Origin: Clostridia bacterium
GTDB lineage: Bacteria > Bacillota > Clostridia > Oscillospirales > CAG-272
Assembly: GCA_017628875.1 (NCBI GenBank)
Contig: JAGBYG010000121.1
Span: 1-44,799, forward strand
DNA length: 44,799 nt
Direction of reading: 5' to 3'
Within the stretch, counting starts at the first letter, position 1. Each line of letters starts with the position of its first letter. Of this stretch, positions 5,723-38,683 are shown piece after piece. The notes beneath the pieces were generated by a model that saw only the letters and a list, made by a program, of their open reading frames with translations, was not told the DNA's origin and did no database searches. Both the position numbers and the translations under genes were made by a program.

Positions 5723-5735
5723 TTACCTCACCGCC

Positions 5736-7465: not shown

Positions 7466-7653
7466 TCCACCTCATAACATTCGCTGCCTACGAGCTGTGC
7501 AAGGATTTCAACATCTCTGTGTTTGATTAAATCCCATATCTCATCGAGGAAGCATTCCTCGCAGAGCATCTTGCCGTCAAATTCTATGATCTTGTCTCCG
7601 GCGCATTGTGTGCAGCCGCAGGTGTTTTCAATAGGCTCGTAGTTAATTCCCAT
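7462..7653 (-). CDS. Small Cys-rich hypothetical protein (63 aa from the internal ATG)
   Basis: ATG at 7653 preceded by GGAGAAAGAACA; CGCTQC..CEEC motifs. Confidence 0.5.
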   Translation of the reverse strand: MGINYEPIENTCGCTQCAGDKIIEFDGKMLCEECFLDEIWDLIKHRDVEILAQLVGSECYEVE

Positions 7654-7852
7654 TGTTCTTTCTCCTGATAATCTTTCCTCTTGTGCCGTCTTCATACTCG
7701 CAAAACGGCAACTGCTTTCTTCTCTCTGCTTCTTTTCTGAAAAAGCCGCAGGTCTCGCAATCTTCTCGATATTCGTTGTGATTGTCGCAGCCCTGCATGA
7801 TGCATTCTCTAATCAGATCAACGCTTACCAACGAAACCACCCCGCCTTGCAT
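7643..7852 (-). CDS. Small Cys-rich hypothetical protein (start uncertain)
   Basis: ORF-track ORF 7643..7894 overlaps the upstream gene; first ATG at 7852; no family recognised. Confidence 0.35.
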   Translation of the reverse strand: MQGGVVSLVSVDLIRECIMQGCDNHNEYREDCETCGFFRKEAERRKQLPFCEYEDGTRGKIIRRKNNGN

Positions 7853-17703: not shown

Positions 17704-18567
17704 CTATTCGGTGGTGATGTAAGCATTATAAGTGCCATAGGTAGTGTTATATACAAAACTAACCGTTGTAGCGGAAGTAATTCCTATTGTGTAGGTAACT
17801 GGATTGCCACTTGTGATACGACTACCATTAAGGTGAATGATAGTAGCAGTAACATTAATAGATGTTCCTTGCTCAAGAGATAAAGTCCCAGCGGATGTGT
17901 ATTTCGTTCCATTAACAGTAAGGTAGGCGTTGGTAGCGTCAAAGTCACCGCTAAATGTCAGCGAGTGTTTATTTGTTGTGCCGCCGCCAGAACCACCGCC
18001 GCTTATAGACGCGCCCGCTGTAAATGTGCCTGTGCCTGCGTTGTAGACATACTCTTTATTTACCTTGTCATACAAACAAGCTACGCCGTCAGGGTCGAGG
18101 CAAGGTCTGTAATCACGAATTAGTGTATTTCCGTCATTAAACTGGCAAGAGTACAATTTTGCGTGACACGGGTAACCTGAAACGCCGCCCAATAACTTAA
18201 ATGTTGCGGAGGGGTTTGCGCTTCTTGTTGTTGTTTTGCTTTCGTTTGCTACACTAACCGTTTGATTGCTACTCGTACCAACAATAGAAACAGTTCTTCG
18301 TTCAGTACCTAAAAAAGAGAATGCACTTGATTTTCCGTCTTCTAAATAGCCGCTTGCGTTAATACCGAAATAATAGCCTGCATTTGCACTCTGACCCATA
18401 AGAGCCTCGTTACCAGTAATAGTGGTAAACTCTATGTCCATTGTTATTGTGTGTATAGAGCCAATTCCAGTATCAATATACTGCGTTCCGCTACTCTCGA
18501 TATACTCCACATAATTAACACCGTCTCCCGATGCCCCATACCCTCGTCTTAAAAATATACAGTTCAT
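17704..18567 (-). CDS. Receptor-binding-like tail protein, paralog 2
   Basis: 287 aa; shares N-terminal GVNYVEYIESSGTQYIDTG, central DYRPCLDPDGVACLYD...GTFTAGASISGGGSGGGTT linker and C-terminal ..ITTE with the adjacent gene. Confidence 0.65.
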   Translation of the reverse strand: MNCIFLRRGYGASGDGVNYVEYIESSGTQYIDTGIGSIHTITMDIEFTTITGNEALMGQSANAGYYFGINASGYLEDGKSSAFSFLGTERRTVSIVGTSSNQTVSVANESKTTTRSANPSATFKLLGGVSGYPCHAKLYSCQFNDGNTLIRDYRPCLDPDGVACLYDKVNKEYVYNAGTGTFTAGASISGGGSGGGTTNKHSLTFSGDFDATNAYLTVNGTKYTSAGTLSLEQGTSINVTATIIHLNGSRITSGNPVTYTIGITSATTVSFVYNTTYGTYNAYITTE

Positions 18568-18575
18568 AGTGCCTC

Positions 18576-19490
18576 CTATTCGGTTGTGATGGCGGCTTTG
18601 TAGGAACTTTGAGAATAAGACATTGTTATTTTGCAGTTGCTTGTAACGGTGTGATTATATGTTCCTTTGCCGTTTTGCACTTTTGTGCCGTTTAATGTTA
18701 CATTAGCGAGTCCATCATAATTGGTGTAAGTACCCGCAACATAAACGCTTACCGCTGTACCCTCTGCCACATTCACAGTTGTTGCCGTTGTATACTTTGT
18801 GCCGTTGATTGTTACATAGCCATAACTGCTACTAAACGTACCCGACAGCGTAACCGCATATTCTTTCGGCGTTGTACCGCCACCCGAACCGCCGCCGCTT
18901 ATCGAAGCTCCTGCCGTAAATGTTCCTGCACCGTATTCATAAGCCTTGCTTATTTCTTCATAGAAACAAGCCACGCCGTCAGGGTCTACAGCCGCCCTAT
19001 AGTCTTTAACAAGAGTGCCGTTATCGTAAATTTGGCATTGCTCAACAGACAAGTTTGGAGCGATGTTTGCCGCGCCGCCTACATTGTTAAGTGCAAACAA
19101 ATAAAGATTGTAGTTACATTGAAAAGTTGCCGCTGTAAAAGATGTTGATACAGAACCAACCTTTAACACGTTTTTGTTAAAGTCAACCGTCTGCATTTGC
19201 GTATAGTCTGCGGTGAGGGAAGCAGTTTTATTTGCATACTCAGCCAACCACGCCGCGCTATTGTTGCGAATACGCAAGTCAAACGCGCTGTTAAGGTAAC
19301 CGTTTCTCGCACCGAATAGGAAAAATTCTGTTGTGGTTGAGGGATGTTTTGCTTTCATAACCACTCTTGTATTTTGGTTAGGCTTAAATCCTGTATCAAA
19401 ATAAGAGCTGCCGTCACCTTTTATCCATTCGACATAGTTAACACCACCGCTACTACCGCCGCCAATTCTCATCGGTAATCTACATTTCAT
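18576..19490 (-). CDS. Receptor-binding-like tail protein, paralog 1
   Basis: 304 aa; GVNYVEWIKGDGSSYFDTG, DYRAAVDPDGVACFYE...GTFTAGASISGGGSGGGTT, ends ..ITTE. Confidence 0.65.
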   Translation of the reverse strand: MKCRLPMRIGGGSSGGVNYVEWIKGDGSSYFDTGFKPNQNTRVVMKAKHPSTTTEFFLFGARNGYLNSAFDLRIRNNSAAWLAEYANKTASLTADYTQMQTVDFNKNVLKVGSVSTSFTAATFQCNYNLYLFALNNVGGAANIAPNLSVEQCQIYDNGTLVKDYRAAVDPDGVACFYEEISKAYEYGAGTFTAGASISGGGSGGGTTPKEYAVTLSGTFSSSYGYVTINGTKYTTATTVNVAEGTAVSVYVAGTYTNYDGLANVTLNGTKVQNGKGTYNHTVTSNCKITMSYSQSSYKAAITTE

Positions 19491-22648: not shown

Positions 22649-25600
22649 TTAATGCCACGGAGCGTCGTCTATAGTGCTTTCCGAGTAGTCAAGCAGGTAA
22701 AGGACATCTTTCTGATCTCTCGAAATATTCAGAGAATTTATGATATCCATGACCGCTTCCTTTTTAGAGCCGCTGTCTGTCTTGCCGTCGCCATCAGCAT
22801 CTGTGCCTTTGGCTTCCTTTTTCCTTACATAGTAATCTTTGTAGACATCAAACTCTATGCCTGTGGATTCTATCTCCTCGTAATACTTGGTGATAGCAGT
22901 AGAGGACATTTCCTCGCTTGCAAGGTTGAGTGCGTAGTTCTTAATGCTTTCAGCCTTGTCGGAAGTCTTCTCAACCTCCTGCGCCCATTTGGGAACTTCG
23001 TGAGTTTCCTTGACATCTCTCTTCGCCGTCTCTGCAGCATAGTCATAAGCCTTTTTGATAACCTCAGATTTCTCCGTGTCATCAAGTTTGTCGTACCAAT
23101 CGGCAGAGGTGATATCCTCGATGAGCTCTCTCTGTCTCTTGCCTCTTGTCTCGGCATACTTGACATACTCGTCCGCGCTGAGATACTCGCCGTCGATTTT
23201 ATCGCTCTGACTTACGCTGCTGGGGAACACTTCGTCAAAACCAAGGTCATAAAGTCTCTGCAGCTCATTGTCTGTAGGAGTGGAAACATCTTCGGATACA
23301 TAAGCCGGATTGAGCATATTGTTGAACACTCTCGCAAGCACAGTGCCGGTGCTTTCTCTTCTGCCCCATGCATCGATGTAAGGTATCTGCTGATATTCGC
23401 CCGGAGTCTTGTTTGCGCTCTTGCCGAGTAAATACTGAATGTCTCTCTCAATCTGAGTCTTGTTTCTATCGACCCAAGTTGTCTCTCGCTCGGTTTCAGT
23501 AACTCTTTCAATCTGTCCTGCAAGAGTAGGAAGTCCCTGAGAGAGGTAACTTGTAAAGGCATTAACGAGAATACCCATCAACTTGCCGTCAGAATAGCTT
23601 ACATTTTCGATGACATCCTGAAGACTTGAAAGCATACTCATTTCGAGCATGGGTTCGCTAATTCTGCTCACGCCCTCTAAAACTGCAGCAAGGTTAAACT
23701 CGCCGTCGTTTTCGATAAGCACGTTTGCAATCTCCGCACCCACGAACATGGGGAGAGCTTCGGGGGCAAGCCAATCAATAGTGAAGTTCTTGTCACCGAC
23801 GGTCAGCGCATAGTTCTGTCCGCCCATCAGCTCGTCAAATTCCTGCTGCTTCTTGTCCTTGTCCTCACCTGCAGAGAGAACACCCTGCTTAACGAGGAAA
23901 ATACCAAGTCCTAAGAGAGCAGATCCAACGAGGCCCGATGCAATAGAGTCGATTGCTTCTGCTGCTGTGGCTGTACCCTTCTTCACGCCGCGTGCGGCCT
24001 GAACAATGCCCTTTGCAAGTCCTACAGGAGAATACTCTATACCACGAACTAAAATGTTCGCAGGTGTTCTTCTGAAGGGCAGAACGCCTTCTGCAACGGT
24101 CTGTGCAGCGGCGACCACCTTGTTCTTCGCCTTGCTCTTTCTGCCAATAGCGGAAATAAAATTGGAGAAGTCGTTGAAGTCTCTGTATGTTGCTTTCTGT
24201 GCTTCCTTGATAGCATATGCTCTCGCCTTATCCAGCTCGCTCTGCTGCATTGTGGACATATCTGTAATGTTTCTTGCTTTGAGATATCCGGCAAGCGCAG
24301 AAGCGTAAGCAGGTCTGCTGAACCACATGTCTTCCGCCTCGAGTGCGAAGCTATTTGCATTAGCAAGCCAGTTGAAAGGCTTTGCAATCTTGGAAGAGCC
24401 GAATGCGGGTTTCATTCTTTCGATTTCGCCTATAGCATCATTGTACTTGCCTGCGCCGGTAATCTGATCCGCAACGATCTTATAATCTTCAAAAGCCGCC
24501 TTATAAAGTTTAGAGCCGCTTGCGATGGCCTTTGTTCGCTGCTCCTGCGGAATGAGCTTTTCGATGAGTGCAGCCGTTGCGTTCTTTGCACCTCTGACGG
24601 GAGCAAACATTGCGTTACCGAGAATGTTTCTGACATGGGTTCTCGGATTGAACAGCATTGCAAGATATCTCCAAGAGTTCCACTTATCCATAAAGGTGTG
24701 GGGAATCTGTGCAGCAACATGTCTGTAGATAGCTTCCTGAGCAGCAGTTCTTGCCTCTTCGGTCTCTGCCTGTTCGTAGTTCTTAACAAGCTGACTATCC
24801 ATTTCGAGCTGCGGAGCTTTGTCTCCATATCTCTCGTTGAGGCTATCCTGCAGCGTCTGAATGCTTCTCTGAATGCCGTAAAGCTGATATTCGGGAGAAA
24901 GCTTCTTGAGCATTCTTACAGCCTGTACCATCTGTGCGCCCTCTCTTACTCTTGCGGCAAGATCGGTCAGAATGCGTACCGCTGTTTCGGTATCGCCTGC
25001 GTTCAGAGCGTTGTTGTAAAGCTGGAAGCCAAGAGCCACATTGTTCTTGCCAAGCTGGTTCTTGTTCACATCGGCTGCCCAATCGAGAAGAGCATCATTC
25101 CAGCCCTTTCTCTTGATGGTATCGTCAGCATACTTCTTAGACTCAGCATCAGTAATGGGAATATAGCTGAAGCCGCCTTTCACCACTTCTTCGGTGAGTC
25201 TTTCAACCATTTCGTCGGAAGTAGCTTCTGCCTCCATAGCGGTTCTAACGGTCTGAGAAACCTTGTTGCCCTTGTTTGTTCTCGCAGGAACGGAAACCTC
25301 TCTGAAGGGCTTTTCGCCGGGTTCAATAGAGCCGTACTTCTGAACGAGAAGCTCGGTGGCTTTACTCGCAACAGCCTTAACGCCCTTTTTGTCAAGAGAC
25401 TCATAAAGTTCGGAGTACATCTTAACGGTGCGGGCTTCAGCGTTGTGCATTCTGTTTCTGTCTTCAACGCTGATGTTGTCACCCTGCTCGCGGTATTTAG
25501 CGATAGCTTCTTCCGTTTCTCTGATTTTCTTTAAGCGTTCAGTAAAGCGATCGAGAACAGCCTTTTCGCTTGCGTTGAACACGGACATATCAAGTGCATT

Positions 25601-28600
25601 TACTGCGTTACTCAATACTGTCGAGTCCGTTCTTTTTCTTTCGTGTTCTTTGCGAAGCTTTTCAATTCCCGGAATTTCGCGAGAGAATCTGATATCAGGA
25701 TTGCTTGTAGGATTTTTGTTATCTACGTTCTTTGCCTGCTCAGAGTTAAAAATAACGGTCTCTGTGTCTAAAATGAAGCCGTCATAGTTAGTGCTGTTAA
25801 CCTTGTTGAAAAGCTCAACAGCCTCAACCATATCTCCGATAGCTGTCTGAGCAACGTCATAAAGCATAGCGAAGTCGCTTTTGCCGCTATACACATCGCG
25901 CAGCACACCATCTACTGTTGCTTCATATCCGTAGTTTTCAAAACTGTAGTCGTCTTCGTTTCCTGCCACAGCCTTTAAGAACTTACGCATCTGCGCCCTT
26001 GTAATGGTAGTTTCGCTTGTAGAGACAGGGTTCGTAATGTTGAGATAAAAAGCCTTTGCTTTTCCGTACTGTTCGGCGTGATTCTTGCTGTTTGTGAAGT
26101 AGAATCCTCTTCCATACAGATTGGAGTATTTAGACTTTCTGCGGTCGAACACGGTAAAGTCCTCGTTTCCGCCTCTGTACATCACGCGGAGATAGCCTTT
26201 GTTGTCGCGCTCTTTTGAATCTTTGAAATACTCCTGCTGTCCCTTGCTCAACTTTTCGCCGTCGCTGTCGGTTGTAAGTTCACGGGAGAAGTGGAACTGA
26301 GAAACGAGAGACTGTCCACGAAGCTCACCTGTCGAGTAATAGTGCTTTACGTCATTAACAATACGTGTGGCGTTTATACTGTTTTCATAAGTTAATGAAC
26401 CAACACTTCTTCCGTTTTCGTCGGAAAAGTCAATGCTAAAGAAACCTTCTTTTGCATACTCGTTGATAAACTTTCTGATTGTGGAATACTGCTCAGAAGT
26501 AGGCTCGGCTTTTGCAAAAATGTCTAAACCGGGAGTCTCAGCCATAACGCGGATGTTGCCGTCATTCATAAAACGAATTAAGGCCGCTGTCCCCTGCGTA
26601 TTTGCATAGATAACACCGATTCCTCTGTGGTCTTCTCCACGCATTCCATAGTGCTTACCTTTTTCGCCACTGAAGTTTAAAAGTTTGCCATTAGGAAGCA
26701 AGTACCCTGCATCGTAAAAATACGGAGTATATCCAAATTCTTTAACCGCCTGTTTTCTGAAGTAGTCCGCTTCGTCTAAACCGCTTTTAGCAATAGCCTC
26801 TTTTTCTTCGTCATCTCTTATCTTGTTATAGAGTTCGTTATAACGTTTATGAAGCTCGTTAAGTTCAGTAGATAAAGTTTTTGACTTTTCGATTATTGCT
26901 GTTAAACCGTTTTTGTTCACCCAATCGCTATACTCTTTGATTGAATCAGGGGACGGTTCCTTAGATACTCTATCAAAGAGCTCTTTGTATTCGTCAGAGT
27001 TTTCGATGTCGTATCTTTCTGCGGATAGTCTCTGCTGCTCTTTGCGCTTATCTTGAATTTCTTCTAAAAGGCCTTCGCGCTCTTTGTGAAGATCTATCTC
27101 TCGACTTGCCTTGCCCTTGACAGAACTTCCATTATGTGCTATTTTGACCTCAGAAGAAGTTTTACCACGCTGAGCGCCGCCGTTGGCGGAAGAGCCGCTA
27201 AGTGCTTTTTGCACAGTGGGAAAGCTTCTTTTTTTCATTTCGCCGATATTATATACTGCATTCCCATTTTTCCCTTTACTTACAGAAATAGTGCATCGAT
27301 AATATGTACCGTCGAAATCCAAAAAGAATGCCGTGCGATAATTCCAACCATCTTTAGCGGTTTCTCCGTGTCTTGCTTCTACATCTTTAACATCTTTTTT
27401 GCCTCTTGTAGAGACCATCGCCAACTCGTCTATATGTGCACCGGCACTAACTTTGCGCTCAAAGTCTCCGTCGCTTATGCGGCCACCATCTTTATAGGGC
27501 GAAGATATTTTTCCGGCGGTATCTTCGGTAAGTGTTAGCAGATCTCCGTCAACGGCGATAAGCGTTACGTTTTCGCCTTTGCGTATTTTGTTGTTTATAT
27601 AGGTTTCAAGCTGTTCGCTCCAGCTGTCAGGGTCGTTTCCGAAAATTACCTGTCGGTCTGCGCGGACATATTTTTTTCCATCAGGTAGAACTTCTACGCT
27701 TGTTTTGCTGTTTGCAGGCGGTCCTCTTGTACTTTCAGCTTTAGTCTTGCCGATTGCTTCCTTAATTGCGGGCTGCAAAACTTTTTCGCTCTGCTCGTAG
27801 TCAGTTTTAGAAAATACGTTCATGTCCGCAAGGCTGTCGCAGATGAGCTCCGTCCAAATCTCTTCAGGACTCATGCCTGACCCTTCGTAAGCTTCGATGT
27901 ATTTGTCCACAATAGCGTCAGCGCGGGCTTTGGTAAACTCCTTGTCGATTCTCTCTCGAACAACATTGGGGTTAATTTCTCCCTTGTCAATCATATCGTG
28001 ACCGATTTCATGCTTAACAAGCTGTTCGGAAGTAAAATCAGGATGGTCTACTCGTGCATAAACTTTGTTGCCAACAATAAAAGCTCTGGCGTTTATGTCA
28101 TAAGTTTTGCCGTCTTCGCCCTTTTGAGATATCTGAAGATTGTCTCCGGCAAACAGCACAAGCTCAAGTCCTCTGGATTTCGCTTGAGCCTTCGCATTTT
28201 TAATAGCTTTAGTTTCGCCGCTCTTAACAATGCGAATGTGTGCGTTTTTAGAACCACCTTCGATACCGAGAGAGGCTTCGCTTACTTTTTCGCTATAAGT
28301 GAGCGAAGCTGTTTCGCTGTCTGCGGGTCTGCTTTTCTCGAGCCCGCTCTGATTTCGTCCTGCGCTTTCTTCCAGCTGTCGTATCTGTCCGCCGGTATTC
28401 TCACCATCAAGCCCGTTGCTGACTTCGCGTAAATGAACTTTTTCTCCATTATTTTCCTCCATGTTATAACTCTGAGCGTCTTCTGATTCAACGTTATTCT
28501 TGCCCTGTTCTTTGAGTCTTGCAATAACACCTGCGTCATAAGCGTTCTCTAACTGAGCGTCGCTCATATGTGGAGTGTGACGTTTCTGCATCACATACTC

Positions 28601-30442
28601 TTTGCCAACTTCGCCCTTGCCGTATTCATATGCAATTTCAAACTCTTTTGCGTAATTCTCAAAAGCAATCGGCTCACTTGTAGAAGATGCGTAAGTCTCA
28701 TATGCGTTCTCTAAAAGTGTCTGAGTCTGTGCGTCGAACTTCGGCATATTTCGCTGACTCATCTTCTCTCCAATAACATTCGCACCACCAAGACCCGCTG
28801 CACTTACGCCACCACTCAGCGCACCGCCGAGACCTGCAAGTAAAACATTCTTGACGTTGTCCCAAAATACCTTTTTCTTGGCTTCTTCTTTGGTCATGCC
28901 GTCAGCCATATACTGCTTAACGAGCTGTGCGTTTTTAGAGTTTCTGCCTGTAATGATAGCGTCGGAGAGAATGTTTGCCCCTTCCGTCAGCATTTCTTCA
29001 ATGCCTTCGGTAGCCGCCTGAACACCAATAGCTTTTAAGAGTTCCTTAACAGTCGCTGCATTCATAGCACCGTTTAACAGCTTGTTAATGGGTGCATACT
29101 CAGCCAATGCTTCGGCTGCGCCTGTTGCAATTGCGCCTGTCAGTATCTGCTTGTTGCTCAGACCTCTGTCCACAGCTTCCTGCATATAGCTTGCAGCGGA
29201 AGCACCGCCCATTGCTACAGTAGCCGCAGGACCAAAAGTGAGAGCGAGAACTGTACTATCAGCTACGCTCATGCCGGTGTTGTAGAGGAAGCTCAGAACT
29301 TCGCTGTCGATGTCCTCGTCTGTTGCCTGTCTGACAGCCTGAACATAAGTGGTAACAGGCATGTTGTATTTGTTCATCGGTCTGTAGTTTTCAAAATCCG
29401 CAGGATCGTTGTGACCGATGCTCTTAATGCCTTTTGCAATTGCCTCAACCGCCATACCGGGTGCATTTGCCACGGTCTGCAGGTTCGTAAGGAAGGGTCT
29501 ATCTTCGTAGTTCTGCCGTGCTCTCTCAACCTGAGCGTCGTACTCTTCTTGAGCCTTAAGCATTGCCTTGTAGTTTTCAAGACCCTCGTAGTCAAAGTCG
29601 AGCTTTTCGAGCTCAGTAGCAGTATCGCTTACAAACTGTTTGCCCTCGTCAAGGACAGCCATGAGCTCGTCTCTGTACTGCTCCATACTCTTGTTGTCAG
29701 TGGTAATGCCGAACTTTTCGGCAACATACTCGTAATCTTCGTCCCACTCAAAATTGCCGGTGTTTACCTTGTCGAGCACACGCTTAATAACTTCGTTGTC
29801 TGCATCTGTCTGAGAAGCTGCCTCATACTGCGCTTTCTGTTCGGGGAGTTTTTCCATCTGAGAAAGCTGAGTCTCGTTTTTGTTGGCGTAGTAAAGGTCA
29901 GAATATCTTTTGATTTTCGCTTCGAGATCTGCAATATAGTCGCCGTCTACGCCGCTCTCGGTAACCGCTCTGCCGGTCTCGTCTCTTTTAAGCGTTCCTT
30001 TTTCACTTGTAACGCCCTTTTTCTTCTTAGCGTCATAGTCTTTTGCGTAATCGAGCTGCTTCTGAAGATTTTCAATAGTGCTTTTCTGCCTGTCAAGGGA
30101 GTAACCGCTGAAGATTTTGTCCTCAGCGGCTGTTTTCTTTTCAGCTTCCTGCTGCTTCTTAACAGTGTTGTTTATAAGCACCTGATTCGGGCCGTGCTTA
30201 AGACCGACATAAGTAGAGCTTCTCAGCTCATTTGAAGGCTGTGCTTCTCTTCTTTTGAACTCGGTCTGAAAAGCTTCTCTGTTCTTCTCGTATACAGCAG
30301 CTTTTTCTTTGTATCTTTTATACTCATCTTCGCTTTGCTTTTTTCTTAGAAACTCTTCGGGCGAAGTCCAAGAAGAGCCCGTTTTTTTCTCTATGCCTCG
30401 GCTTTTTAAAAATTCGTCAACCGTTGTATGTTTTTTTGCCAT
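22649..30442 (-). CDS. Giant (2,597 aa) multi-domain virion protein: polyvalent-type effector fusion / probable ejection (internal) protein
   Basis: Single uninterrupted ORF in the structural operon. Coiled-coil N-terminus; Gly/Ala-rich hydrophobic region (aa ~385-560); zincin HEIGH (aa 811-815); toxin-like module (aa ~915-1075); ART-PolyVal-like region (aa ~1398-1590); ~900-aa C-terminal module with a TM-like segment and a DADGDGKTD motif. Confidence 0.9.
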   Translation of the reverse strand: MAKKHTTVDEFLKSRGIEKKTGSSWTSPEEFLRKKQSEDEYKRYKEKAAVYEKNREAFQTEFKRREAQPSNELRSSTYVGLKHGPNQVLINNTVKKQQEAEKKTAAEDKIFSGYSLDRQKSTIENLQKQLDYAKDYDAKKKKGVTSEKGTLKRDETGRAVTESGVDGDYIADLEAKIKRYSDLYYANKNETQLSQMEKLPEQKAQYEAASQTDADNEVIKRVLDKVNTGNFEWDEDYEYVAEKFGITTDNKSMEQYRDELMAVLDEGKQFVSDTATELEKLDFDYEGLENYKAMLKAQEEYDAQVERARQNYEDRPFLTNLQTVANAPGMAVEAIAKGIKSIGHNDPADFENYRPMNKYNMPVTTYVQAVRQATDEDIDSEVLSFLYNTGMSVADSTVLALTFGPAATVAMGGASAASYMQEAVDRGLSNKQILTGAIATGAAEALAEYAPINKLLNGAMNAATVKELLKAIGVQAATEGIEEMLTEGANILSDAIITGRNSKNAQLVKQYMADGMTKEEAKKKVFWDNVKNVLLAGLGGALSGGVSAAGLGGANVIGEKMSQRNMPKFDAQTQTLLENAYETYASSTSEPIAFENYAKEFEIAYEYGKGEVGKEYVMQKRHTPHMSDAQLENAYDAGVIARLKEQGKNNVESEDAQSYNMEENNGEKVHLREVSNGLDGENTGGQIRQLEESAGRNQSGLEKSRPADSETASLTYSEKVSEASLGIEGGSKNAHIRIVKSGETKAIKNAKAQAKSRGLELVLFAGDNLQISQKGEDGKTYDINARAFIVGNKVYARVDHPDFTSEQLVKHEIGHDMIDKGEINPNVVRERIDKEFTKARADAIVDKYIEAYEGSGMSPEEIWTELICDSLADMNVFSKTDYEQSEKVLQPAIKEAIGKTKAESTRGPPANSKTSVEVLPDGKKYVRADRQVIFGNDPDSWSEQLETYINNKIRKGENVTLIAVDGDLLTLTEDTAGKISSPYKDGGRISDGDFERKVSAGAHIDELAMVSTRGKKDVKDVEARHGETAKDGWNYRTAFFLDFDGTYYRCTISVSKGKNGNAVYNIGEMKKRSFPTVQKALSGSSANGGAQRGKTSSEVKIAHNGSSVKGKASREIDLHKEREGLLEEIQDKRKEQQRLSAERYDIENSDEYKELFDRVSKEPSPDSIKEYSDWVNKNGLTAIIEKSKTLSTELNELHKRYNELYNKIRDDEEKEAIAKSGLDEADYFRKQAVKEFGYTPYFYDAGYLLPNGKLLNFSGEKGKHYGMRGEDHRGIGVIYANTQGTAALIRFMNDGNIRVMAETPGLDIFAKAEPTSEQYSTIRKFINEYAKEGFFSIDFSDENGRSVGSLTYENSINATRIVNDVKHYYSTGELRGQSLVSQFHFSRELTTDSDGEKLSKGQQEYFKDSKERDNKGYLRVMYRGGNEDFTVFDRRKSKYSNLYGRGFYFTNSKNHAEQYGKAKAFYLNITNPVSTSETTITRAQMRKFLKAVAGNEDDYSFENYGYEATVDGVLRDVYSGKSDFAMLYDVAQTAIGDMVEAVELFNKVNSTNYDGFILDTETVIFNSEQAKNVDNKNPTSNPDIRFSREIPGIEKLRKEHERKRTDSTVLSNAVNALDMSVFNASEKAVLDRFTERLKKIRETEEAIAKYREQGDNISVEDRNRMHNAEARTVKMYSELYESLDKKGVKAVASKATELLVQKYGSIEPGEKPFREVSVPARTNKGNKVSQTVRTAMEAEATSDEMVERLTEEVVKGGFSYIPITDAESKKYADDTIKRKGWNDALLDWAADVNKNQLGKNNVALGFQLYNNALNAGDTETAVRILTDLAARVREGAQMVQAVRMLKKLSPEYQLYGIQRSIQTLQDSLNERYGDKAPQLEMDSQLVKNYEQAETEEARTAAQEAIYRHVAAQIPHTFMDKWNSWRYLAMLFNPRTHVRNILGNAMFAPVRGAKNATAALIEKLIPQEQRTKAIASGSKLYKAAFEDYKIVADQITGAGKYNDAIGEIERMKPAFGSSKIAKPFNWLANANSFALEAEDMWFSRPAYASALAGYLKARNITDMSTMQQSELDKARAYAIKEAQKATYRDFNDFSNFISAIGRKSKAKNKVVAAAQTVAEGVLPFRRTPANILVRGIEYSPVGLAKGIVQAARGVKKGTATAAEAIDSIASGLVGSALLGLGIFLVKQGVLSAGEDKDKKQQEFDELMGGQNYALTVGDKNFTIDWLAPEALPMFVGAEIANVLIENDGEFNLAAVLEGVSRISEPMLEMSMLSSLQDVIENVSYSDGKLMGILVNAFTSYLSQGLPTLAGQIERVTETERETTWVDRNKTQIERDIQYLLGKSANKTPGEYQQIPYIDAWGRRESTGTVLARVFNNMLNPAYVSEDVSTPTDNELQRLYDLGFDEVFPSSVSQSDKIDGEYLSADEYVKYAETRGKRQRELIEDITSADWYDKLDDTEKSEVIKKAYDYAAETAKRDVKETHEVPKWAQEVEKTSDKAESIKNYALNLASEEMSSTAITKYYEEIESTGIEFDVYKDYYVRKKEAKGTDADGDGKTDSGSKKEAVMDIINSLNISRDQKDVLYLLDYSESTIDDAPWH
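25673..26251 (-). other. ART-PolyVal-like (ADP-ribosyltransferase of polyvalent proteins) segment of the giant protein
   Basis: QQEYFKDSKERDNKGYLRVMYRGGNEDFTVFDRRKSKYSNLYGRGFYFTNSKNHAEQYGKAKAFYLNITNPV follows the F-x-x-S-K...Y(H/R)G...F-x-x-F...G-x-(Y/F)-F-(T/S)...A-x-x-Y...YL-x-I-x-NP pattern I recall for that family. Confidence 0.6.
27803..28240 (-). other. Zincin-like metallopeptidase segment of the giant protein
   Basis: LVKHEIGHDM encoded at ~27995-28021 (H811 = 28010-28012), followed ~50 aa later by E/D-rich helices. Confidence 0.55.
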
Positions 30443-30457: not shown

Positions 30458-31597
30458 TTAGGACAGATCTTTAGAGTATTTTTCGTACCACTGTCTTCGC
30501 TGTGTCGCAGTTATTGCCCCTTCGTTGTAAAGTTCCCACACATAACCTGACAGAGCATCAAGCCCATACTGAGCCATATCTTTTATATCTGCCTCAATAC
30601 CAGTCGGTTCGCTGCCGCCGCCACCACCATTGCCTTTGCTTAACGCTGCCTGAGCAATGCTGTATGCATCTGCATCGCTGATACCTGCCTGACTCAGCAT
30701 ATCTGCAGAGGGCATAACGCCGCTCTTGAGCATAGTCATTGCAGTATCATAAGCGTAGCTTCTGTTTTCGCTCGCCTGTTCGCTCTCCATATTAGCAATG
30801 TTCATTGCGTAATTTCTATTACTCTCGTATACGCCGAAGTCGTAATTTCTCTCAGCGTTGTACTGATCCGCAGCAAAGCCGAGCTCCCACTGATAATCGC
30901 TTACGGTGTCTCTGTATCTGCCGTAGTCGGTATCTTCAAGGGTCTGAGTCATGCTGAACTGATTGTAGAGGTCCTGAGTCTCCTGATTGTACTGATCTCT
31001 TGCCATACCGTAAAGCTCAGGAACAACATCGTTAAGCTGTCTCAAGTAGTTCTGATAAGCCTGCTGACCTGCGTTCTGTGCGTAAGTGTTTGCGTAACCG
31101 CCGGTAAGACCTGCAGCCTGACCCATAGTGTCAAGCATTGCCATTTCGCCAAGCGCGGAATACTGGTCTTTATACTGCTGATAGAGCATATCTGAGTTAA
31201 GGTCGTAAGAGAACTTGTCTCTGTTCACAATCTTGTTGTAGATATCTGTAATCTGACCTTCCCACTTGCTCACATAGCCGCCGGGCTTGCTGCTCTGTAC
31301 CTGACTCAGATAATTCTGTGCAGCATTTACAGATGCGGAGGGAGTGTAAGTTCCGTATTTGTTGAGAGCCTGATCGGTGTCGGGGCTGATGTTAAGTCCG
31401 CTGTTTCCGATATACTCACTGCCGTCACCGCCGCCGGAGTATTTGTATTTGTCTCTCACCGCTTCAGCATTGGCGTGGGCCTGCTGTCTCTCTTCGGGAG
31501 TAGTGGCGTTTGCGTAGTCCTGCTTGTACTGCTGGACAAGGTTATAGTCCTCTTCGTTTAGGTATTTCTTATCGTACTGAGAAGTGTATGTAGCCAT
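30458..31597 (-). CDS. Q/Y/N-rich virion protein (379 aa from the second ATG)
   Basis: ATG at 31597 has GGAGG at 7-nt spacing (the ATG at 31603 abuts the SD); internal GNGGGGGSEP linker. Confidence 0.6.
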   Translation of the reverse strand: MATYTSQYDKKYLNEEDYNLVQQYKQDYANATTPEERQQAHANAEAVRDKYKYSGGGDGSEYIGNSGLNISPDTDQALNKYGTYTPSASVNAAQNYLSQVQSSKPGGYVSKWEGQITDIYNKIVNRDKFSYDLNSDMLYQQYKDQYSALGEMAMLDTMGQAAGLTGGYANTYAQNAGQQAYQNYLRQLNDVVPELYGMARDQYNQETQDLYNQFSMTQTLEDTDYGRYRDTVSDYQWELGFAADQYNAERNYDFGVYESNRNYAMNIANMESEQASENRSYAYDTAMTMLKSGVMPSADMLSQAGISDADAYSIAQAALSKGNGGGGGSEPTGIEADIKDMAQYGLDALSGYVWELYNEGAITATQRRQWYEKYSKDLS

Positions 31598-31599
31598 AC

Positions 31600-31797
31600 T
31601 CATTCCTCCTTTTCTTTAAGAGCCTCGGAATATTCTTTGAGCTCTGCTGCCGTCTGTTCTGCAGCCATTCTTCCGATGGCGTTTGAATACGCAGTAACGA
31701 TAGGTTCAAGGATAACGGGAGGAAGCCCGCTCTCTCTAAGAAGCTTATCGAAACTGTTTTTAAACTCTAAAATTGCTACGCTTGCGGGTTTTTCCAT
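31600..31797 (-). CDS. Small hypothetical protein (65 aa)
   Basis: GGAGG RBS located in the end of the fibre gene. Confidence 0.5.
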   Translation of the reverse strand: MEKPASVAILEFKNSFDKLLRESGLPPVILEPIVTAYSNAIGRMAAEQTAAELKEYSEALKEKEE

Positions 31798-31799
31798 TG

Positions 31800-33626
31800 T
31801 TAGCCTCCAATCATCTTTTCAAGAGCTTCCACTCTTCTCTTAAGTTTCTGTATCTGCCAAGTGTTAAGCGCGATAAATTCCTCATATCTAAGGCCGCATT
31901 CGCCGTAAATCCCCATTGGCTCGTCAAACTCAACGTAAGCTGCAAGATCCTGCGTTGTGTGACCAGTGTTCTCTACAGACGCCTTAACATCCTGCGCTAT
32001 AAATCCTGTGTGCTTTCGGTCAGATTTGCCAAAGTTATACTTAAAGACAGCAGGTAAAAGCCCGTTATAAATTTCCTCATATTCATCAAGGTCATAACTT
32101 ATTTCGTGTTTTACGTTTCTATCGGAGTTGGTTGCTACAGGTGATCCGTTTGCAGTTATGCTATCGCCTACAAGATGTGTGCCTGATGCGCCACAAGTTA
32201 CGCTACTATAATCGCCATACTTAATAAGCGCACCGCTATAATAAGCTGTCACTTCGCCGCCACCGAGATATTTCATAGAAGGTCCATTGTCGGTGGCAAC
32301 AACTGAGCTATAATTTGTAAATAGACCCGGACCAGAGGAAGTACCACTCGTGCCATAGCCTATATTGCCTAAATAAGAGTAGCCGTTATAAATAAGAAGA
32401 TGGCCCTTTACAATTACATCGTTACCCGAAATAGTGATACCGCTTAAAGTGCCGCCCGTTATGTTTGGGGAATTGATACTCACGCCCGCGCTAAGTGTTC
32501 CTGCAAAGGAGCCCGTTGCTGCACTAAGTTCGCCCGCAAACGTTCCTTTTGCCGCGCTCAAGCTGCCCGCAAACGTGCCGGTTGCCGCGTTCAAGCTTCC
32601 TGAAAACGAGCCGCTTGTTGCGGTCATTTTGCCATCAGAGTCTACTTTGAAGTTCTTGCCTATTCTTAAGCCGCTTGAGCCAAAGTACATTCCCGTTGTG
32701 CCCGAAAATGTCGCGCCATCGGTATACAGATTATCCGTGCCAATATTCCAGTTAGCTATCTTGCCGCTTGTGGCTTTCATATAGCCGGAACTGTTTACGC
32801 TGAAGGTCGGGTTTGCATCTGTGCCGCCTATCTGAATAGAACCGCCTGTTAAGTGAGCGTTGGGGAAATACACAGCACCCGTGTTCATGTACGCAAGCTT
32901 TGTGCTTCCGCTCCAAAAGGCCATCTCATCCGCAGTAAATGTGGAATAAAGCTGAGCCCCCTGTCGGCTTAAAACTCTCTCAAAATATGTGGTTAAGTCT
33001 TCCTTGGTCGGCTCGCTTACTTCCACATAATTACTGCCGTTTTTTGTGTAATAGGTCTTGGCGTTGTTGATTTCTGTGTCTTCCGTTTCTTCATACACGG
33101 AGAAATCTCCGTATATGTTGCCAACGCCCACGCCGTAAACCGGCAGAGCACCGTCGTGATACAAAAGCCCTGTCTTGATGTAGCTCTCCTGATTCACTCT
33201 GTAATCCGAGCTTGCCGCATCAATACCTGCCGAGTAGTTATAAAGCTGAGTAATGCCGTAGGGCGTGCCGTCAATATCCACCGTGGCGTTCTCAAAGTAT
33301 TCACCAAAGTCAGATACCGCCACATAGTTTCCCTGCAGAGAGAGCCCAAAGCTCTCACTGTTCTGCACAGCGTAGTCCGCAGTCTTGATTATCAGGGATC
33401 TCAGAGCTGAATACTCCTGAAGTCTCAGCTCTGTTTCGGGTCTTTTCGCATCTTCGGGGAGCTCACTCGCGTTCACCGCTTGACTCAGCTCGCTCATCAC
33501 CGCATAAGCCGATGTATCACAAGCATTGAGTGTATCTACCATCTGATAAAGGTAGCTTCTCAGCTCGTTTAAACGCTCCTCAGTAGTCCCTTCAGAAATG
33601 GAAGGATAAGCAATATTCAGGTTCAA
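31800..33626 (-). CDS. Tail fibre/spike with C-terminal Peptidase_S74 intramolecular chaperone domain (TTG start, TTGA overlap)
   Basis: C-terminal 109 aa NSDRNVKHEISYD...HTGFIAQDVK...LRYEEFIALNTWQIQKLKRRVEALE with the S-D-x-x-x-K autoprocessing motif; upstream tandem GxFAGxLSAA repeats. Confidence 0.85.
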   Translation of the reverse strand: MNLNIAYPSISEGTTEERLNELRSYLYQMVDTLNACDTSAYAVMSELSQAVNASELPEDAKRPETELRLQEYSALRSLIIKTADYAVQNSESFGLSLQGNYVAVSDFGEYFENATVDIDGTPYGITQLYNYSAGIDAASSDYRVNQESYIKTGLLYHDGALPVYGVGVGNIYGDFSVYEETEDTEINNAKTYYTKNGSNYVEVSEPTKEDLTTYFERVLSRQGAQLYSTFTADEMAFWSGSTKLAYMNTGAVYFPNAHLTGGSIQIGGTDANPTFSVNSSGYMKATSGKIANWNIGTDNLYTDGATFSGTTGMYFGSSGLRIGKNFKVDSDGKMTATSGSFSGSLNAATGTFAGSLSAAKGTFAGELSAATGSFAGTLSAGVSINSPNITGGTLSGITISGNDVIVKGHLLIYNGYSYLGNIGYGTSGTSSGPGLFTNYSSVVATDNGPSMKYLGGGEVTAYYSGALIKYGDYSSVTCGASGTHLVGDSITANGSPVATNSDRNVKHEISYDLDEYEEIYNGLLPAVFKYNFGKSDRKHTGFIAQDVKASVENTGHTTQDLAAYVEFDEPMGIYGECGLRYEEFIALNTWQIQKLKRRVEALEKMIGG

Positions 33627-35410
33627 TAAACATCACTTCCTGTCTCAAGGTTTTTGGCGATAGAGAATATCTTCACTTCGCCTGTTCCGCAAAGCTTCAT
33701 TCTGTAGTGATCGCATCTCGTGGGCAGAATAGAGAATACCTTGCTGTACATTCCTTCTCCATCCCAATGCCCCGCAAACTCCCATTCGCCGGAGTCGTAT
33801 TCCATAAACACATCCATATCAGAACCGGGAGGAAGTATCGCCCTGATGTTGATTCTCCCCACATATTTGTTGTCTGCGTATTCGTAACCAATAAGGCCGG
33901 AAACGGCTTCCCAATACACATCGCCTTCCGCCATACCCTCGTCTGCGATAATCTCTCTGAGAGTGTCGGTTTCGTCTATGAAGTAGAGGTTGTCTCCGCT
34001 CTCTGCAAACTCTTTAACTTTTGTGCCGTCTTCTCTGACCCAAAGGCCCTTTGCTGTGTCATAAACAAAAAGGCTGTATTCGCCATCGCATTCCATAGAG
34101 ATGTAGTATTTGTCTAAAAGTCTGCCGCCTACACCGTTTTTGAACTTGTCATTGCCGAAAGTCTCGTGAACAGGAACGGGAAGAGAGCCGTCATATCTCA
34201 TAACGCCGGTGTTGGATAAGTAATAAAGTCTCTCACCCACTACCTTCAGAGACTTATCAGAACCTTTTTGGACACCCCTACATTGTGTTTCCACAATCTG
34301 ATGTGCGCCTGTCGTGCTGATGTACACTTTGTGCAGGCAGTTCTCTTTGAAGAAGATGGGATATCCCATATATGTTGCCGCGCCCGTCCATCTGCCGTCA
34401 GTACCTACAGAAGCTGCAAAGCTGTCGCTTGATACGCCGAGATATCTTGTCCAGTTCTTGAAGTCGCCTAAAGCGCAGCAGTAAATCTCGTTTACTGTCT
34501 TACCCTCAGAGTTAATGCCGTAGTGACAGCCCCAAAGTCTGTTATTTGACTCTGTGATAAACTCCATGTCAGGAGCTTTTCTTTCGATACTCACTTCTTC
34601 CGCGCTCTGTGTGGTGAAGCTCACAACCTTGTCCAAAAGGCCCACGACGACCACAAAGCCGTTGCCCACCTCATAAAGGACATGAGAGCCGTTGAGCTTC
34701 TCGACCTGCTTAGAAAGGCTCTCGTCGCTTGTCTTCAGGCCCTTGATGTTAACGCCGTCATACTTCTTAAGTCCGTCGCCAATACCGGGCGCAGATATCT
34801 TGACATACACTGTCGCTACGCTTACCCACATACCCGTGGTTTCACTCCACTGCTTAAGGGCGTGAGTCTCTGCGGATGTATCAATCCACAGCTGACCGTT
34901 GGTGGGGTTTTCGGGAGCGGTGATGCTTGCGGTGTTATTAGTCACTTCGTAAGCTGTGCCGTCTACCTTGCAGAGACTAAGCTCCACTTTCTGCCCTGCA
35001 GCCACTCTGTTAATCTGATCGATATAGCCCCACTCGGTAATGTCTGCTGTGTTGATGAACACCTTGTCAGGCCATATAAGCAGATATGCGCCCATACCGA
35101 TAAGCTTCTTGGGCTGCATACTCTCGTTGGTGCTCAGAACAGGACCTTCAATCTTCGCGCCGTTCATGTAAACGTAATTGCCGTCAACATAGATAAGTGC
35201 ATCTTTGAAGATAATCCCCTGCAGGTCGTTCCACGCGGTGTTAATAAAGCCTCTCTTCTGCCTCTGACTCAGCAGAGGAAAATTATCGGAAGAGAGGTTT
35301 TCTGTTTCGTACCACTCGCCGTCGCTGATTCTTACGTTGTGGTTTCTGCCGTAAAAGGTGTCGGTAAAAAGACGGGAGGGCTGGCTATATATCGTGTTCG
35401 GATATTCCAT
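33623..35410 (-). CDS. Large virion/tail structural protein (595 aa), beta-rich
   Basis: AAGGAGGGG RBS; position between the head-completion genes and the tail fibre; no family recognised with confidence. Confidence 0.65.
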   Translation of the reverse strand: MEYPNTIYSQPSRLFTDTFYGRNHNVRISDGEWYETENLSSDNFPLLSQRQKRGFINTAWNDLQGIIFKDALIYVDGNYVYMNGAKIEGPVLSTNESMQPKKLIGMGAYLLIWPDKVFINTADITEWGYIDQINRVAAGQKVELSLCKVDGTAYEVTNNTASITAPENPTNGQLWIDTSAETHALKQWSETTGMWVSVATVYVKISAPGIGDGLKKYDGVNIKGLKTSDESLSKQVEKLNGSHVLYEVGNGFVVVVGLLDKVVSFTTQSAEEVSIERKAPDMEFITESNNRLWGCHYGINSEGKTVNEIYCCALGDFKNWTRYLGVSSDSFAASVGTDGRWTGAATYMGYPIFFKENCLHKVYISTTGAHQIVETQCRGVQKGSDKSLKVVGERLYYLSNTGVMRYDGSLPVPVHETFGNDKFKNGVGGRLLDKYYISMECDGEYSLFVYDTAKGLWVREDGTKVKEFAESGDNLYFIDETDTLREIIADEGMAEGDVYWEAVSGLIGYEYADNKYVGRINIRAILPPGSDMDVFMEYDSGEWEFAGHWDGEGMYSKVFSILPTRCDHYRMKLCGTGEVKIFSIAKNLETGSDVY

Positions 35411-36139: not shown

Positions 36140-37207
36140 TTAGTTAGCTTCGTCAGTGCCGGAGAAGGAAGAAGCGGACATAACTCTGAGAAGTCTCTCA
36201 GGATAGAGAATGGTTGCGCCGTTGGTCTCGAACTTGTAGCCAACAGTGCTGAACTGCTCAAGAGGACCGCCGATTTCGCCCTTGTTCTTGACGATCATCT
36301 GCAGTGCGCCGCCTTCGGGATCGATGATGCCGAAAGCATCCTTGCCGAAGAAGTAGGTAGCGTAAGTAACAGTACCTGCCTTGTTTGCGTACTCGCCGTC
36401 AAGTACAGGAGCGAAGGTATCTTCGATGAATCTTACGCCGTGAAGTTCGCCGATCTCGCCGTTGAAGATTTCGCCGGGAGCTGCGTACTTGTGAGCTTCC
36501 ATCCAGCCGTCAGACTTACGAAGGTCGTAAGCTACAGAGGGATGAACAACAGCAACGTACTTGCCGTTGATGGTGGGAACTCTGTCCTTCTTCATCTTGG
36601 TAGCAGCCTTAGCAACCATATCGGGAGTGAGAAGACTCATAACAGTTGCGCTTGCTTCCATCTGACCGGGCTCAGTGGGAGTGCCAGCGGATGCGCCGGT
36701 AGCAATGGTAATGTTGTCGCAGTAGAGAACGTTGGTGTTAACGAGCAGAGCGTCACGGATAAGAACTTCCTGAGTCTCTGCAGCAGAAGCACCCATTTCC
36801 TCAGTTGCGCCAAGAATAACGGGGTCGTATGCTCTCAGTTCGAGAACATCGGAGATGGTAGCGTAAGTACCGTACTGATCGATGTTGCCGTACAGAGCGG
36901 TCTGACCGATTTTCTGACCAGTGGGAATAACGCCTTCTTCAAGCTTGGTAGCGCGAGCGAAGGTGTTCCACTTTCTCCACTCTACAAGGCCCTTGTGTCT
37001 TGCGGGCAGGGGCTGCTTCTTACCAAACTGAGCGTAGAACATCTCAGCGCGAGCGTTCTCAAGCAGCTCGGTGTCGTAAAAAGCTTTGAGAGTGGTGTCA
37101 AGGTTGGTGTGAGATTCGGCTTCGCCGGTGTATGCGTTAACGTAATTGGTAGTGGCATTTACAAGAGTGCCAGCGTCAGCAAAAAGCTGAAGGTTGATAA
37201 AATCCAT
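36140..37207 (-). CDS. Major capsid protein, N4-gp56-family-like (HK97 fold), with a Prp-type N-terminal leader
   Basis: 355 aa; FYDTELLENARAEMFYAQFGKKQPLPARHKGLVEWRKWNTFARATKLEEGVIPTG..IDQYGTYATISDVLEL resembles the N4-gp56 family; N-terminus MDFINLQLFADAG. Confidence 0.85.
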   Translation of the reverse strand: MDFINLQLFADAGTLVNATTNYVNAYTGEAESHTNLDTTLKAFYDTELLENARAEMFYAQFGKKQPLPARHKGLVEWRKWNTFARATKLEEGVIPTGQKIGQTALYGNIDQYGTYATISDVLELRAYDPVILGATEEMGASAAETQEVLIRDALLVNTNVLYCDNITIATGASAGTPTEPGQMEASATVMSLLTPDMVAKAATKMKKDRVPTINGKYVAVVHPSVAYDLRKSDGWMEAHKYAAPGEIFNGEIGELHGVRFIEDTFAPVLDGEYANKAGTVTYATYFFGKDAFGIIDPEGGALQMIVKNKGEIGGPLEQFSTVGYKFETNGATILYPERLLRVMSASSFSGTDEAN

Positions 37208-38356: not shown

Positions 38357-38683
38357 CTACTTTACGGTGAGAGTAAGATTTTCTTTGTAGCCTTTTGCAA
38401 GCAATACAAAGCCGTTCACGATGCTGTCGAGAATGCTCATAACCATCTCGTTATACTTCTTATGAGGCTCAACGCTGATTTCTGCGTATCCGTCCTCGAA
38501 TCTTGTTAAGAGGCTCTTAGGCTTGGCGCATTTAAACTCCACAGCATCGATACAGCTCTGTGCAAATGTGTATGCGAGAATGGTTGCAGCCGCGCAAATG
38601 GGGTCAGAGCCTTTAAGCCCTGCCCCTGCGTGACCTTCAACCTTAAGGGAATGATGCATTCTGTCGTATGTAACGTTAATCAT
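38357..38683 (-). CDS. prp: Prp-like cysteine protease (ribosomal-processing protease family, DUF464)
   Basis: 108 aa; VEGHAGAGLKGSDPICAAATILAY (His/Cys dyad context) and C-terminal ENLTLTVK align with my memory of S. aureus Prp (GHADHGEYGHDIVCAGASAV..., ENIRLNYK). Confidence 0.8.
   Translation of the reverse strand: MINVTYDRMHHSLKVEGHAGAGLKGSDPICAAATILAYTFAQSCIDAVEFKCAKPKSLLTRFEDGYAEISVEPHKKYNEMVMSILDSIVNGFVLLAKGYKENLTLTVK

Follow-up and report, generated by a model that had tools for sequence, protein, structure and literature searches.

What kind of protein is the 2,597-amino-acid (aa) product of a giant gene located among phage late genes, and what might it do during infection? The gene lies in a 44,799-nucleotide stretch of DNA (contig JAGBYG010000121.1, positions 1 to 44,799, assembly GCA_017628875.1, from a Clostridia bacterium of the lineage Oscillospirales; CAG-272), hereafter the window. 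A first-pass annotation, made from the letters of the window alone, had described the product as a polyvalent protein in which effector modules are fused to a membrane-active scaffold, so that effector delivery and channel formation would be combined in one polypeptide. Our analysis identified the giant gene as a new and well-supported example of the polyvalent proteins, not as a new kind of system. The protein consists of conserved ends and an exchangeable centre, and we consider it probable that it is packaged in the capsid and ejected, the ends serving a virion or ejection function and the centre delivering effectors.

As first described, the open reading frame (ORF) is uninterrupted. It covers 17.4% of the window, which has no terminal repeat and may be an incomplete genome. 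The G+C content of the gene (0.461) equals that of the window. A strong, canonical ribosome-binding site (AAGGAGG) is located 7 nt 5' of the ATG at position 30442, and the start lies 15 nt past the stop of the upstream gene. The sequence motifs named in the first-pass annotation were found exactly where it had placed them: HEIGH at aa 811-815 (H811 at 28010-28012), AHIDEL at aa 1002, VMYRGG at aa 1420-1425 (R1423 at 26174-26176) and DADGDGKTD at aa 2548-2556. Polyvalent proteins were defined by Iyer, Burroughs, Anand, de Souza and Aravind in 2017 (PMC5512222), who predicted that they are packaged and processed by a metallopeptidase (MPTase) domain. The giant protein has two attributes of this class, since it joins at least two disparate domains in one large polypeptide (ART-PolyVal, HExxH peptidase-like, LPD3-like and the DHR/GNIR domain, Table 1) and its neighbours are virion late genes, an arrangement shared with four related phage or prophage loci.

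To describe the family, we mapped the 348 homologues returned by a database search, mostly 1,600-4,400 aa in size and encoded on phage-sized contigs, onto the query. This revealed that the two end modules are conserved and that the centre varies. Of 296 retrieved proteins, 104 contained the N module, which was always close to the N-terminus where its position was mapped, and the C module was conserved in at least 61. For the 23 proteins with both end modules, the length of the centre ranged from 76 aa in P0016, which is little more than N plus C, to 2,180 aa. The gene of a sister phage (P0002) is 87-88% identical at the DNA level over nt 289-1680 and 5040-7794 of the giant gene and has a 3.36-kb centre without detectable similarity, with one breakpoint where the N module ends and the other ~20 aa ahead of the C module; the centre has been replaced as one clean ~3.4-kb cassette. 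Other centres among the homologues contained MuF_C, PBECR3, PBECR5, LPD3, LPD23, ddrB-ParB, zeta toxin/kinase, PRTase and CHAP domains. The Phage_Mu_F domain was absent from the query by Pfam, and some relatives have a MuF_C nuclease-type domain only, as cargo. The architecture is a scaffold, composed of the N module, the C module and a tail ending in APWH, that carries a swappable central cargo. Because the nearly cargo-less P0016 exists, the scaffold may have a function of its own.

The N module had no match in Pfam and was predicted by AlphaFold 2 (AF2) to be all helical, with predicted local distance difference test (pLDDT) values mostly in the range of 70-97; a Foldseek search with the model of aa 150-1120 against PDB was empty. 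It encloses the Gly/Ala-rich hydrophobic stretch noted previously at aa ~385-560, the Gly plus Ala fraction being 0.33 in aa 401-500. The charged segment that precedes the module (aa 1-165) is conserved in the closest relatives only, and few homologues cover this region. A coiled coil had been proposed for this N-terminus; the analysis covered its composition, which is rich in charged residues (K+E+D+R 0.37-0.39). PDB searches with the C module, by sequence and by fold, were also empty. Searched with Foldseek against BFVD, the C-module model matched the C-terminal regions of further giant proteins of gut phages (E 1e-57 to 1e-28) and the predicted 'internal virion proteins' of marine T7-like podoviruses of Pelagibacter and Synechococcus (E 1e-11 to 1e-8, TM scores of 0.35-0.5). 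The transmembrane (TM)-like helix of the C module and the Gly/Ala-rich helices of the N module are conserved in homologues; the hydrophobicity scan behind the former was a simple threshold, not a TM predictor. A C-terminal module with a TM-like helix and a calcium-binding-like motif had been proposed for this region. The conserved module and its one TM-like helix stand, but the DADGDGKTD loop is variable and sometimes deleted in homologues, and a calcium site at the DxDGDG loop is therefore unproven. The APWH tail was also present in P0003 and P0004, which have the N-terminal 648 aa in common and in which no C module was found by BLAST; its presence in these two proteins suggests that the tail may be an independent terminal docking or recognition element.

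Searches with the whole giant protein against PHROGs and NCBIfam returned nothing, and phmmer and profile searches of PDB gave no match for the whole protein, the C module, or the LPD3-like and DHR/GNIR domains. Foldseek comparisons of both AF2 models with PDB yielded nothing below E 0.3, where the use of a multi-domain query may reduce sensitivity. When 50,697 GenBank phage records were searched by tblastn, the whole protein had a single, trivial match, and the N module and the C module alone had none, even at E <= 1.

Among the enzymatic modules of the centre, a significant profile match was obtained for one, the ADP-ribosyltransferase (ART) domain ART-PolyVal. Pfam family PF18760 matched aa 1413-1579 with 55.8 bits in the whole protein and 61.8 bits in the segment (E-values of 1.2e-14 to 1.6e-16; gathering cut-off 31.2). 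The domain is bona fide, and with it the assignment to the phage-type polyvalent proteins was upheld. R1423 had been taken as part of the family pattern, and this part of the proposal fails: of the H-Y-D triad (His in strand 1, Tyr in strand 2, Asp in strand 5), Y1448 and D1554 are kept, but the conserved His is replaced by R1423. In the active-site alignment an Arg occupies the His position also in the four closest ART relatives, and a Gln in a fifth, while most other homologues read YHG. R1423 therefore substitutes for a catalytic residue and is not a hallmark of the family.

The zincin-like domain contains the single HExxH motif of the giant protein, which is invariant across homologues, as are a DH upstream of it and an E..CD downstream. 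AF2 modelled the domain, with pLDDT values of 90-97, as an N-terminal helix, a five-strand sheet, the HEIGH helix (aa 805-819) and further helices, and the conserved E865 and D869 lie in a predicted helix after the HEIGH helix. This predicted structure follows the zincin layout of an N-terminal helix, a sheet, the HExxH helix and a later Glu helix. There was no significant zincin match in Pfam, the best being to eCIS_core with E 0.064 for the query and 0.0024 for one relative, and none in PDB by Foldseek, where the domain was searched within the whole aa 150-1120 multi-domain model. The zincin HEIGH site proposed initially is thus backed by the invariant motif and a confident zincin-like predicted fold, but not by a significant profile or structure match. 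From the motif and the confidently predicted fold, aa ~700-915 would represent a zincin core of the MPTase type seen in polyvalent proteins.

The segment that follows, aa 915-1075, had been likened to toxin-like nuclease modules. It does correspond to a conserved domain, with 684 representatives at 50% clustering that are up to 73% identical, yet the query segment had no match in Pfam to PBECR1-5, MuF_C or any other nuclease up to E 10, and none in PDB, which leaves the nuclease proposal without support. The domain is usually located directly C-terminal to a zincin of the type described above, and the dyad is contiguous in dozens of giant proteins. The query did not match LPD3 (PF18798); 4 of 16 domain relatives matched it weakly, with a best E of 9e-4, and a profile comparison with LPD3 regions using hhalign gave a weak E of 0.12 with the pattern HI.EL ... 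DG.YY...I.V in common. The AF2 confidence for this LPD3-like domain was low. A PBECR5 match in the relative P0271 most likely sits in a separate downstream domain, because the common region spans only residues 1-364 of P0271.

Between the LPD3-like and ART domains is a domain with no match in Pfam or PDB, in which the motifs DHR and GNIR are invariant. The G+C content of this module (aa 1113-1389) is 0.41, compared with 0.46 for the gene and the window, which fits a recently acquired cassette. The domain is also found in a ~3,100-aa giant protein of the Rhodobacteraceae phage LS06-2018-MD07 (OP947163, locus L083). The giant gene of this marine phage is ~9.3 kb, runs across the origin of the record, is annotated as 'methyltransferase' and is located two genes downstream of a gene for an 'internal virion protein'. 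From its sequence and position, the 'methyltransferase' appears to be another giant polyvalent protein in the ejection-protein position.

The modules of the centre end in recurrent short motifs: RGPP...[KR][YF]S for the zincin, NPT.NPDIR[FY]S for the ART domain and F[RH][YF]S for the DHR/GNIR domain. The tripeptide [RK][FY]S flanks the ART, LPD3-like and DHR/GNIR modules, and in the query SRE[IL] follows the junction motif at aa 1113, 1386 and 1587. In 193 giant proteins, [RK][FY]S occurred 661 times in 430 unique contexts, compared with 160 occurrences of the reversed tripeptide and ~290 expected from composition. By inference from this pattern, the junctions are candidate processing sites.

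The late operon also encodes a candidate processing enzyme, a Prp-type cysteine protease. The classical Prp motif, of the type NLQLF/AD (the slash marks the site), has been described for ribosomal protein L27 and for staphylococcal phage 80alpha. Such a site is common to the N-termini of the scaffold protein (MSYLIKLHNLQLF/ADGG, ~38227-38268, minus strand) and the capsid protein (MDFINLQLF/ADAG, ~37178-37207, minus strand), and the protease and the two sites together imply that capsid maturation would be Prp-dependent. A search for Prp sites in the giant protein recovered only a loose LLVQKY/GS at the start of the C module, the Gln of which is not conserved in homologues, and Prp cleavage of the giant protein is at best a weak idea.

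The gene content of the window was used to infer the type of phage. The late operon contains the genes for the small and large terminase subunits, the portal, the 108-aa Prp-type protease, the scaffold, the major capsid protein, proteins of 166 and 595 aa, a fibre of 608 aa that carries an S74 chaperone domain, proteins of 65 and 381 aa, and the giant protein. Beyond the giant gene come the genes for a protein of 113 aa, for a collagen-like fibre of 915 aa, for a pair of paralogues of ~300 aa each, and for holin-like proteins and an endolysin; an integrase gene is on the other arm. The giant gene is thereby placed between fibre genes, downstream of the portal, capsid and adaptor genes. As the first-pass annotation had stated, there is no tape measure elsewhere: among the ORFs of the window we found no tail tube, sheath, tape measure or tape-measure chaperone and no other ORF >915 aa. 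The sister phage has an identical gene order, and its portal belongs to the Pfam family P22_portal. In two prophages of Clostridia genomes, one of which has an SU10-type adaptor, the same compact order ends with the genes for proteins of ~590 and ~350 aa, followed by the giant gene, a holin and an amidase. The order seen repeatedly was terL, P22_portal, Prp, scaffold, capsid, adaptor, ~590-aa protein, ~350-aa partner, giant gene and lysis genes, without tube, sheath or tape measure.

The location of the giant gene in the slot of ejection proteins was likewise borne out, in that the giant gene and its conserved 381-aa upstream partner close the morphogenesis block, as in phages of the P22 and T7 types. 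A protein of similar size occupies the partner position in three prophages (L084, L086 and L087); no family match was found for the 381-aa protein, and PDB searches with it and with the 595-aa protein were uninformative. The portal and the 595-aa protein matched only unannotated human-faecal phage contigs. A scan of species-representative genomes for the C module identified 164 loci, nearly all in Oscillospiraceae and other gut Clostridia, with Pseudoflavonifractor, Lawsonibacter, Massiliimalia and Dielma among the cultured hosts. The P22-type portal of the sister phage, the SU10-type adaptor of a relative and the lack of tube and tape-measure genes therefore support the premise of a short-tailed phage, and the gene content as a whole points to a temperate, P22-portal-type phage of gut Oscillospiraceae/Clostridia. 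To judge from the relatives, the host is most likely a monoderm gut bacterium of the class Clostridia.

In the reading that we favour, the giant protein would be made late and put into the procapsid together with the 381-aa partner. During infection it would leave through the portal and tail, and the scaffold modules, with their TM-like helix and Gly/Ala-rich helices, might aid the passage of DNA over the monoderm wall and membrane by analogy with T7 gp16, possibly by membrane insertion and formation of a channel. The cargo would be freed at the junctions ([RK/H][FY]S and RGPP...S) by the embedded zincin or by the phage Prp protease, and could then modify host targets, the ART domain by ADP-ribosylation.

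Most elements of this scheme have precedents. Like the polyvalent proteins of PMC5512222, the giant protein combines several conflict domains in one chain of >1,000 aa, including an ART-PolyVal, an HExxH peptidase and an LPD-type domain, it is encoded among virion late genes, and its peptidase corresponds to the one proposed as the processing enzyme. It differs from them in that its N and C scaffold modules and its DHR/GNIR domain are outside Pfam, that its ART domain has an Arg for the family His, and that it has no MuF, SNF2, methylase or N4-type RNA polymerase module. A close parallel in setting is gp47 of the Stx phage phi24B (2,811 aa; bioRxiv 10.64898/2026.04.10.717836), which is abundant in virions by mass spectrometry and for which a capsid-packaged ejection protein was proposed, so that the ejection-protein idea for polyvalent proteins is already published. 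Both are giant polyvalent proteins of short-tailed temperate phages, encoded at the end of the structural region after a gene for a ~400-aa protein. Unlike the giant protein, gp47 has LPD5, LPD1, LPD38 and MuF-C domains and a Gram-negative host. The ~400-aa proteins encoded before the giant genes of phi24B (L085 27853-29118) and the window (30458-31603) are both N/Q/Y/R/E-rich with repeats of the ERNYDF/NRNYA type, and a BLASTP comparison of the two gave a compositional resemblance only (E 0.06).

Prophages phi1 and phi4 of Clostridium clostridioforme LM41 contain an 8-kb ORF that makes up ~20% of the genome and was interpreted as a polyvalent protein (PMC11318856, 2024). These ORFs resemble the giant gene in their presence in gut Clostridia prophages, their location at the 3' end of the phage and their LPD3 similarity, a likeness by description; the LM41 paper gives no domain anatomy for them. 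The ejection proteins gp16 and gp15 of T7 and gp16, gp20 and gp7 of P22 (PMC8954989) are likewise encoded in the structural operon of phages that have no tail tube, are large, helical and highly divergent, and combine an enzymatic domain with a scaffold whose C-terminal part contains a hydrophobic helix; the C module matches internal virion proteins predicted for T7-like cyanophages and pelagiphages. On the other hand, no solved structure from T7 or P22 was matched, the host is monoderm, the cargo consists of cytoplasmic effectors and not of a peptidoglycan hydrolase, and a gp14-like multi-TM partner was not seen in the phage of the window. The N4 virion RNA polymerase gp50 (PMC13434306; Iyer 2017) is also giant (~3,500 aa) and encapsidated, has an MPTase domain and is expelled with the ejectosome, but an RNA polymerase module is absent from the giant protein, and no sequence similarity between the two was detected. 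Added here are the family-level anatomy, with N and C modules outside Pfam, the clean exchange of a cassette, a motif at the junctions and a variant ART active site, and a link of the C module to internal virion proteins that is suggested by predicted structures and concerns phages of monoderm hosts.

Several observations weigh against a packaged and ejected protein. Its incorporation into the virion is a prediction, neither AF2 model matched solved structures in PDB by Foldseek, including the T7, P22 and N4 ejection proteins, and profiles of the N-half and the C module showed no similarity to phi24B gp47 by hhalign. The matches to internal virion proteins in BFVD are between predicted all-helical models on both sides, with a high root-mean-square deviation, and only one segment was clearly above the simple hydrophobicity threshold. 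The zincin has no significant profile match in Pfam, cleavage at the junction motif is conjecture, and with an R-Y-D variant site in place of the conserved His of the family the activity of the ART domain is uncertain. Finally, the homologue P0005 stands alone among housekeeping genes. The failure to match any solved channel-forming ejection protein and the single clear hydrophobic helix would be expected of a protein that only carries effectors. Such a carrier would be injected along with the DNA, and its N and C modules would serve for packaging, portal docking or unfolding and translocation and form no conduit across the envelope, a channel being made unnecessary by other proteins or by the monoderm envelope. 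The monoderm Clostridia hosts and two loci (L020 and L044) with the giant gene in a head-assembly position, directly upstream of the scaffold and capsid genes, also agree with such a carrier. This narrower reading keeps considerable weight, but we judge it less likely than the favoured one, since the C module resembles predicted internal virion proteins, the TM-like and Gly/Ala-rich helices are conserved and the existence of P0016 with its 76-aa centre implies that the scaffold has its own function.

The setting of P0005 is also what one would expect if the giant protein acted outside the virion, as a prophage polymorphic toxin, a lysogenic-conversion factor or a host-domesticated polyvalent protein that works from the lysogen on competitors or incoming elements; polyvalent proteins captured by hosts were noted by Iyer et al. 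(PMC5512222) and the cargo is typical of toxin systems. With the gene tightly embedded in a late structural operon not only of the window but also of four related phages or prophages, a 15-nt gap to the upstream gene, a ribosome-binding site of its own, and neither a signal peptide nor nearby secretion-system genes seen, we regard this as improbable. Still less credible is a long-tailed phage in which the giant protein would be the tape measure or some other structural protein of the tail or fibres. Great length, a largely helical structure and Gly/Ala-rich hydrophobic stretches are found in many tape measures, but there are no adjacent genes for a tube, sheath or chaperones in the window, and the P22-type portal of the sister phage and the SU10-type adaptor of a relative point to a short tail. 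At the usual ~1.5 Å of tail length per residue, 2,597 aa would mean a tail of ~390 nm. The inter-module length of 76 to 2,180 aa and the wholesale swap of the centre in a sister phage that is ~88% identical over the conserved ends are incompatible with a ruler, and the tape-measure architecture was rejected.

The packaged and ejected polyvalent protein hence remains the reading to which we give most credence, and a bolder form of it can be put forward tentatively. The N and C modules might constitute an undescribed ejection-scaffold family of podoviruses of monoderm gut Clostridia, a modular delivery platform in which cassettes of 0 to ~2,200 aa recombine between the modules and a virion protease, either the zincin or Prp, cuts the [RK][FY]S and RGPP...S junctions after injection. 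Giant genes of this kind occur frequently in the prophages of abundant gut Clostridia, as illustrated by the 164 loci, and probably decide whether a phage becomes established in a defended host. If a scaffold with exchangeable cargo, perhaps with defined sites of cleavage at the junctions, is confirmed, it would offer a natural inventory of effectors for early anti-defence and host takeover, with several domains of no known function, and a possible chassis for the delivery of proteins into gut anaerobes. The concept of ejection proteins, developed in Gram-negative hosts, would then extend to monoderm hosts.

Table 1. Features of the giant gene and associated genes in the window
Feature	Residues	Position (nt)	Strand	Basis and remarks
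Whole giant gene, polyvalent protein	1-2597	22649..30442	minus	ORF list and translation, ribosome-binding site, 348 homologues
Charged Lys/Glu-rich N-terminus	1-165	29948..30442	minus	K+E+D+R 0.37-0.39 by composition
N module, conserved	~170-560	28763..29935	minus	Long helices, including Gly/Ala-rich hydrophobic helices aa 383-452 and 533-557
Zincin-like metallopeptidase domain (predicted)	~700-915	27698..28345	minus	HEIGH 811-815 at 27998-28012; conserved H800, E865, D869; RGPP...SVE junction at end
Distantly LPD3-like alpha+beta domain (~165 aa)	~918-1085	27188..27691	minus	Alignment A2; 684 cluster representatives
Coiled-coil linker and DHR/GNIR domain (~165 aa)	1113-1389	26276..27106	minus	Alignment A4; [FY]S junctions on flanks
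ART-PolyVal ADP-ribosyltransferase domain	1413-1590	25673..26206	minus	R1423, Y1448, D1554; end NPTSNPDIRFS
C module, all-helical, conserved	~1700-2500	22943..25345	minus	Alignment A1; AF2 pLDDT 74.9 (moderate confidence)
TM-like helix	2166-2189	23876-23947	minus	Kyte-Doolittle 2.04; only strongly hydrophobic helix of the protein
C-terminal tail, conserved, ends APWH	2517-2597	22652..22894	minus	Alignment of 20 tails; DxDGDG loop
Q/N/Y/G-rich protein (381 aa), conserved upstream partner		30458..31603	minus	Upstream in 14 of 80 related loci
Prp-type cysteine protease (108 aa), candidate virion processing enzyme		38357..38683	minus	NCBIfam Prp E 3.5e-10; Pfam Peptidase_Prp in sister phage

A few further observations concern neighbouring genes and individual relatives. 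The 595-aa protein (33623-35410, minus strand) matched PHROG 511, labelled 'internal virion protein', with an E of 3e-52. The protein is encoded after the putative adaptor (166 aa) and looks beta-rich by eye, which suggests a tail hub or nozzle, a likely role with which the PHROG label is not reconciled. A different slot for the giant gene, the MuF slot directly after the portal, was considered for L020 and L044 and dropped, the genes upstream at L044 being those for a methylase, NinG and an HNH nuclease, with no portal.

P0005 (2,060 aa; L081 10001-16183 and L082 4218-10400) has both the N and the C module, and its neighbours encode MarR, MatE, a SleB-like hydrolase and an amidohydrolase. Phage genes are absent over a distance of 10 kb, and this homologue may have been domesticated or may be a remnant. 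The prophage with the 3,878-aa relative P0089 has, among the structural genes that lie upstream of its giant gene, one for a reverse transcriptase (RVT_1; L088 1517-2623), which may be part of a diversity-generating retroelement. In the window itself, the adjacent paralogues at 17704-18567 (287 aa) and 18576-19490 (304 aa), both on the minus strand, are 34% identical (E 5e-34), have a common GTFTAGASISGGGSGGGT linker and gave no family match. They lie downstream of the gene for the collagen-like fibre and probably represent a duplicated receptor-binding or fibre-tip protein.

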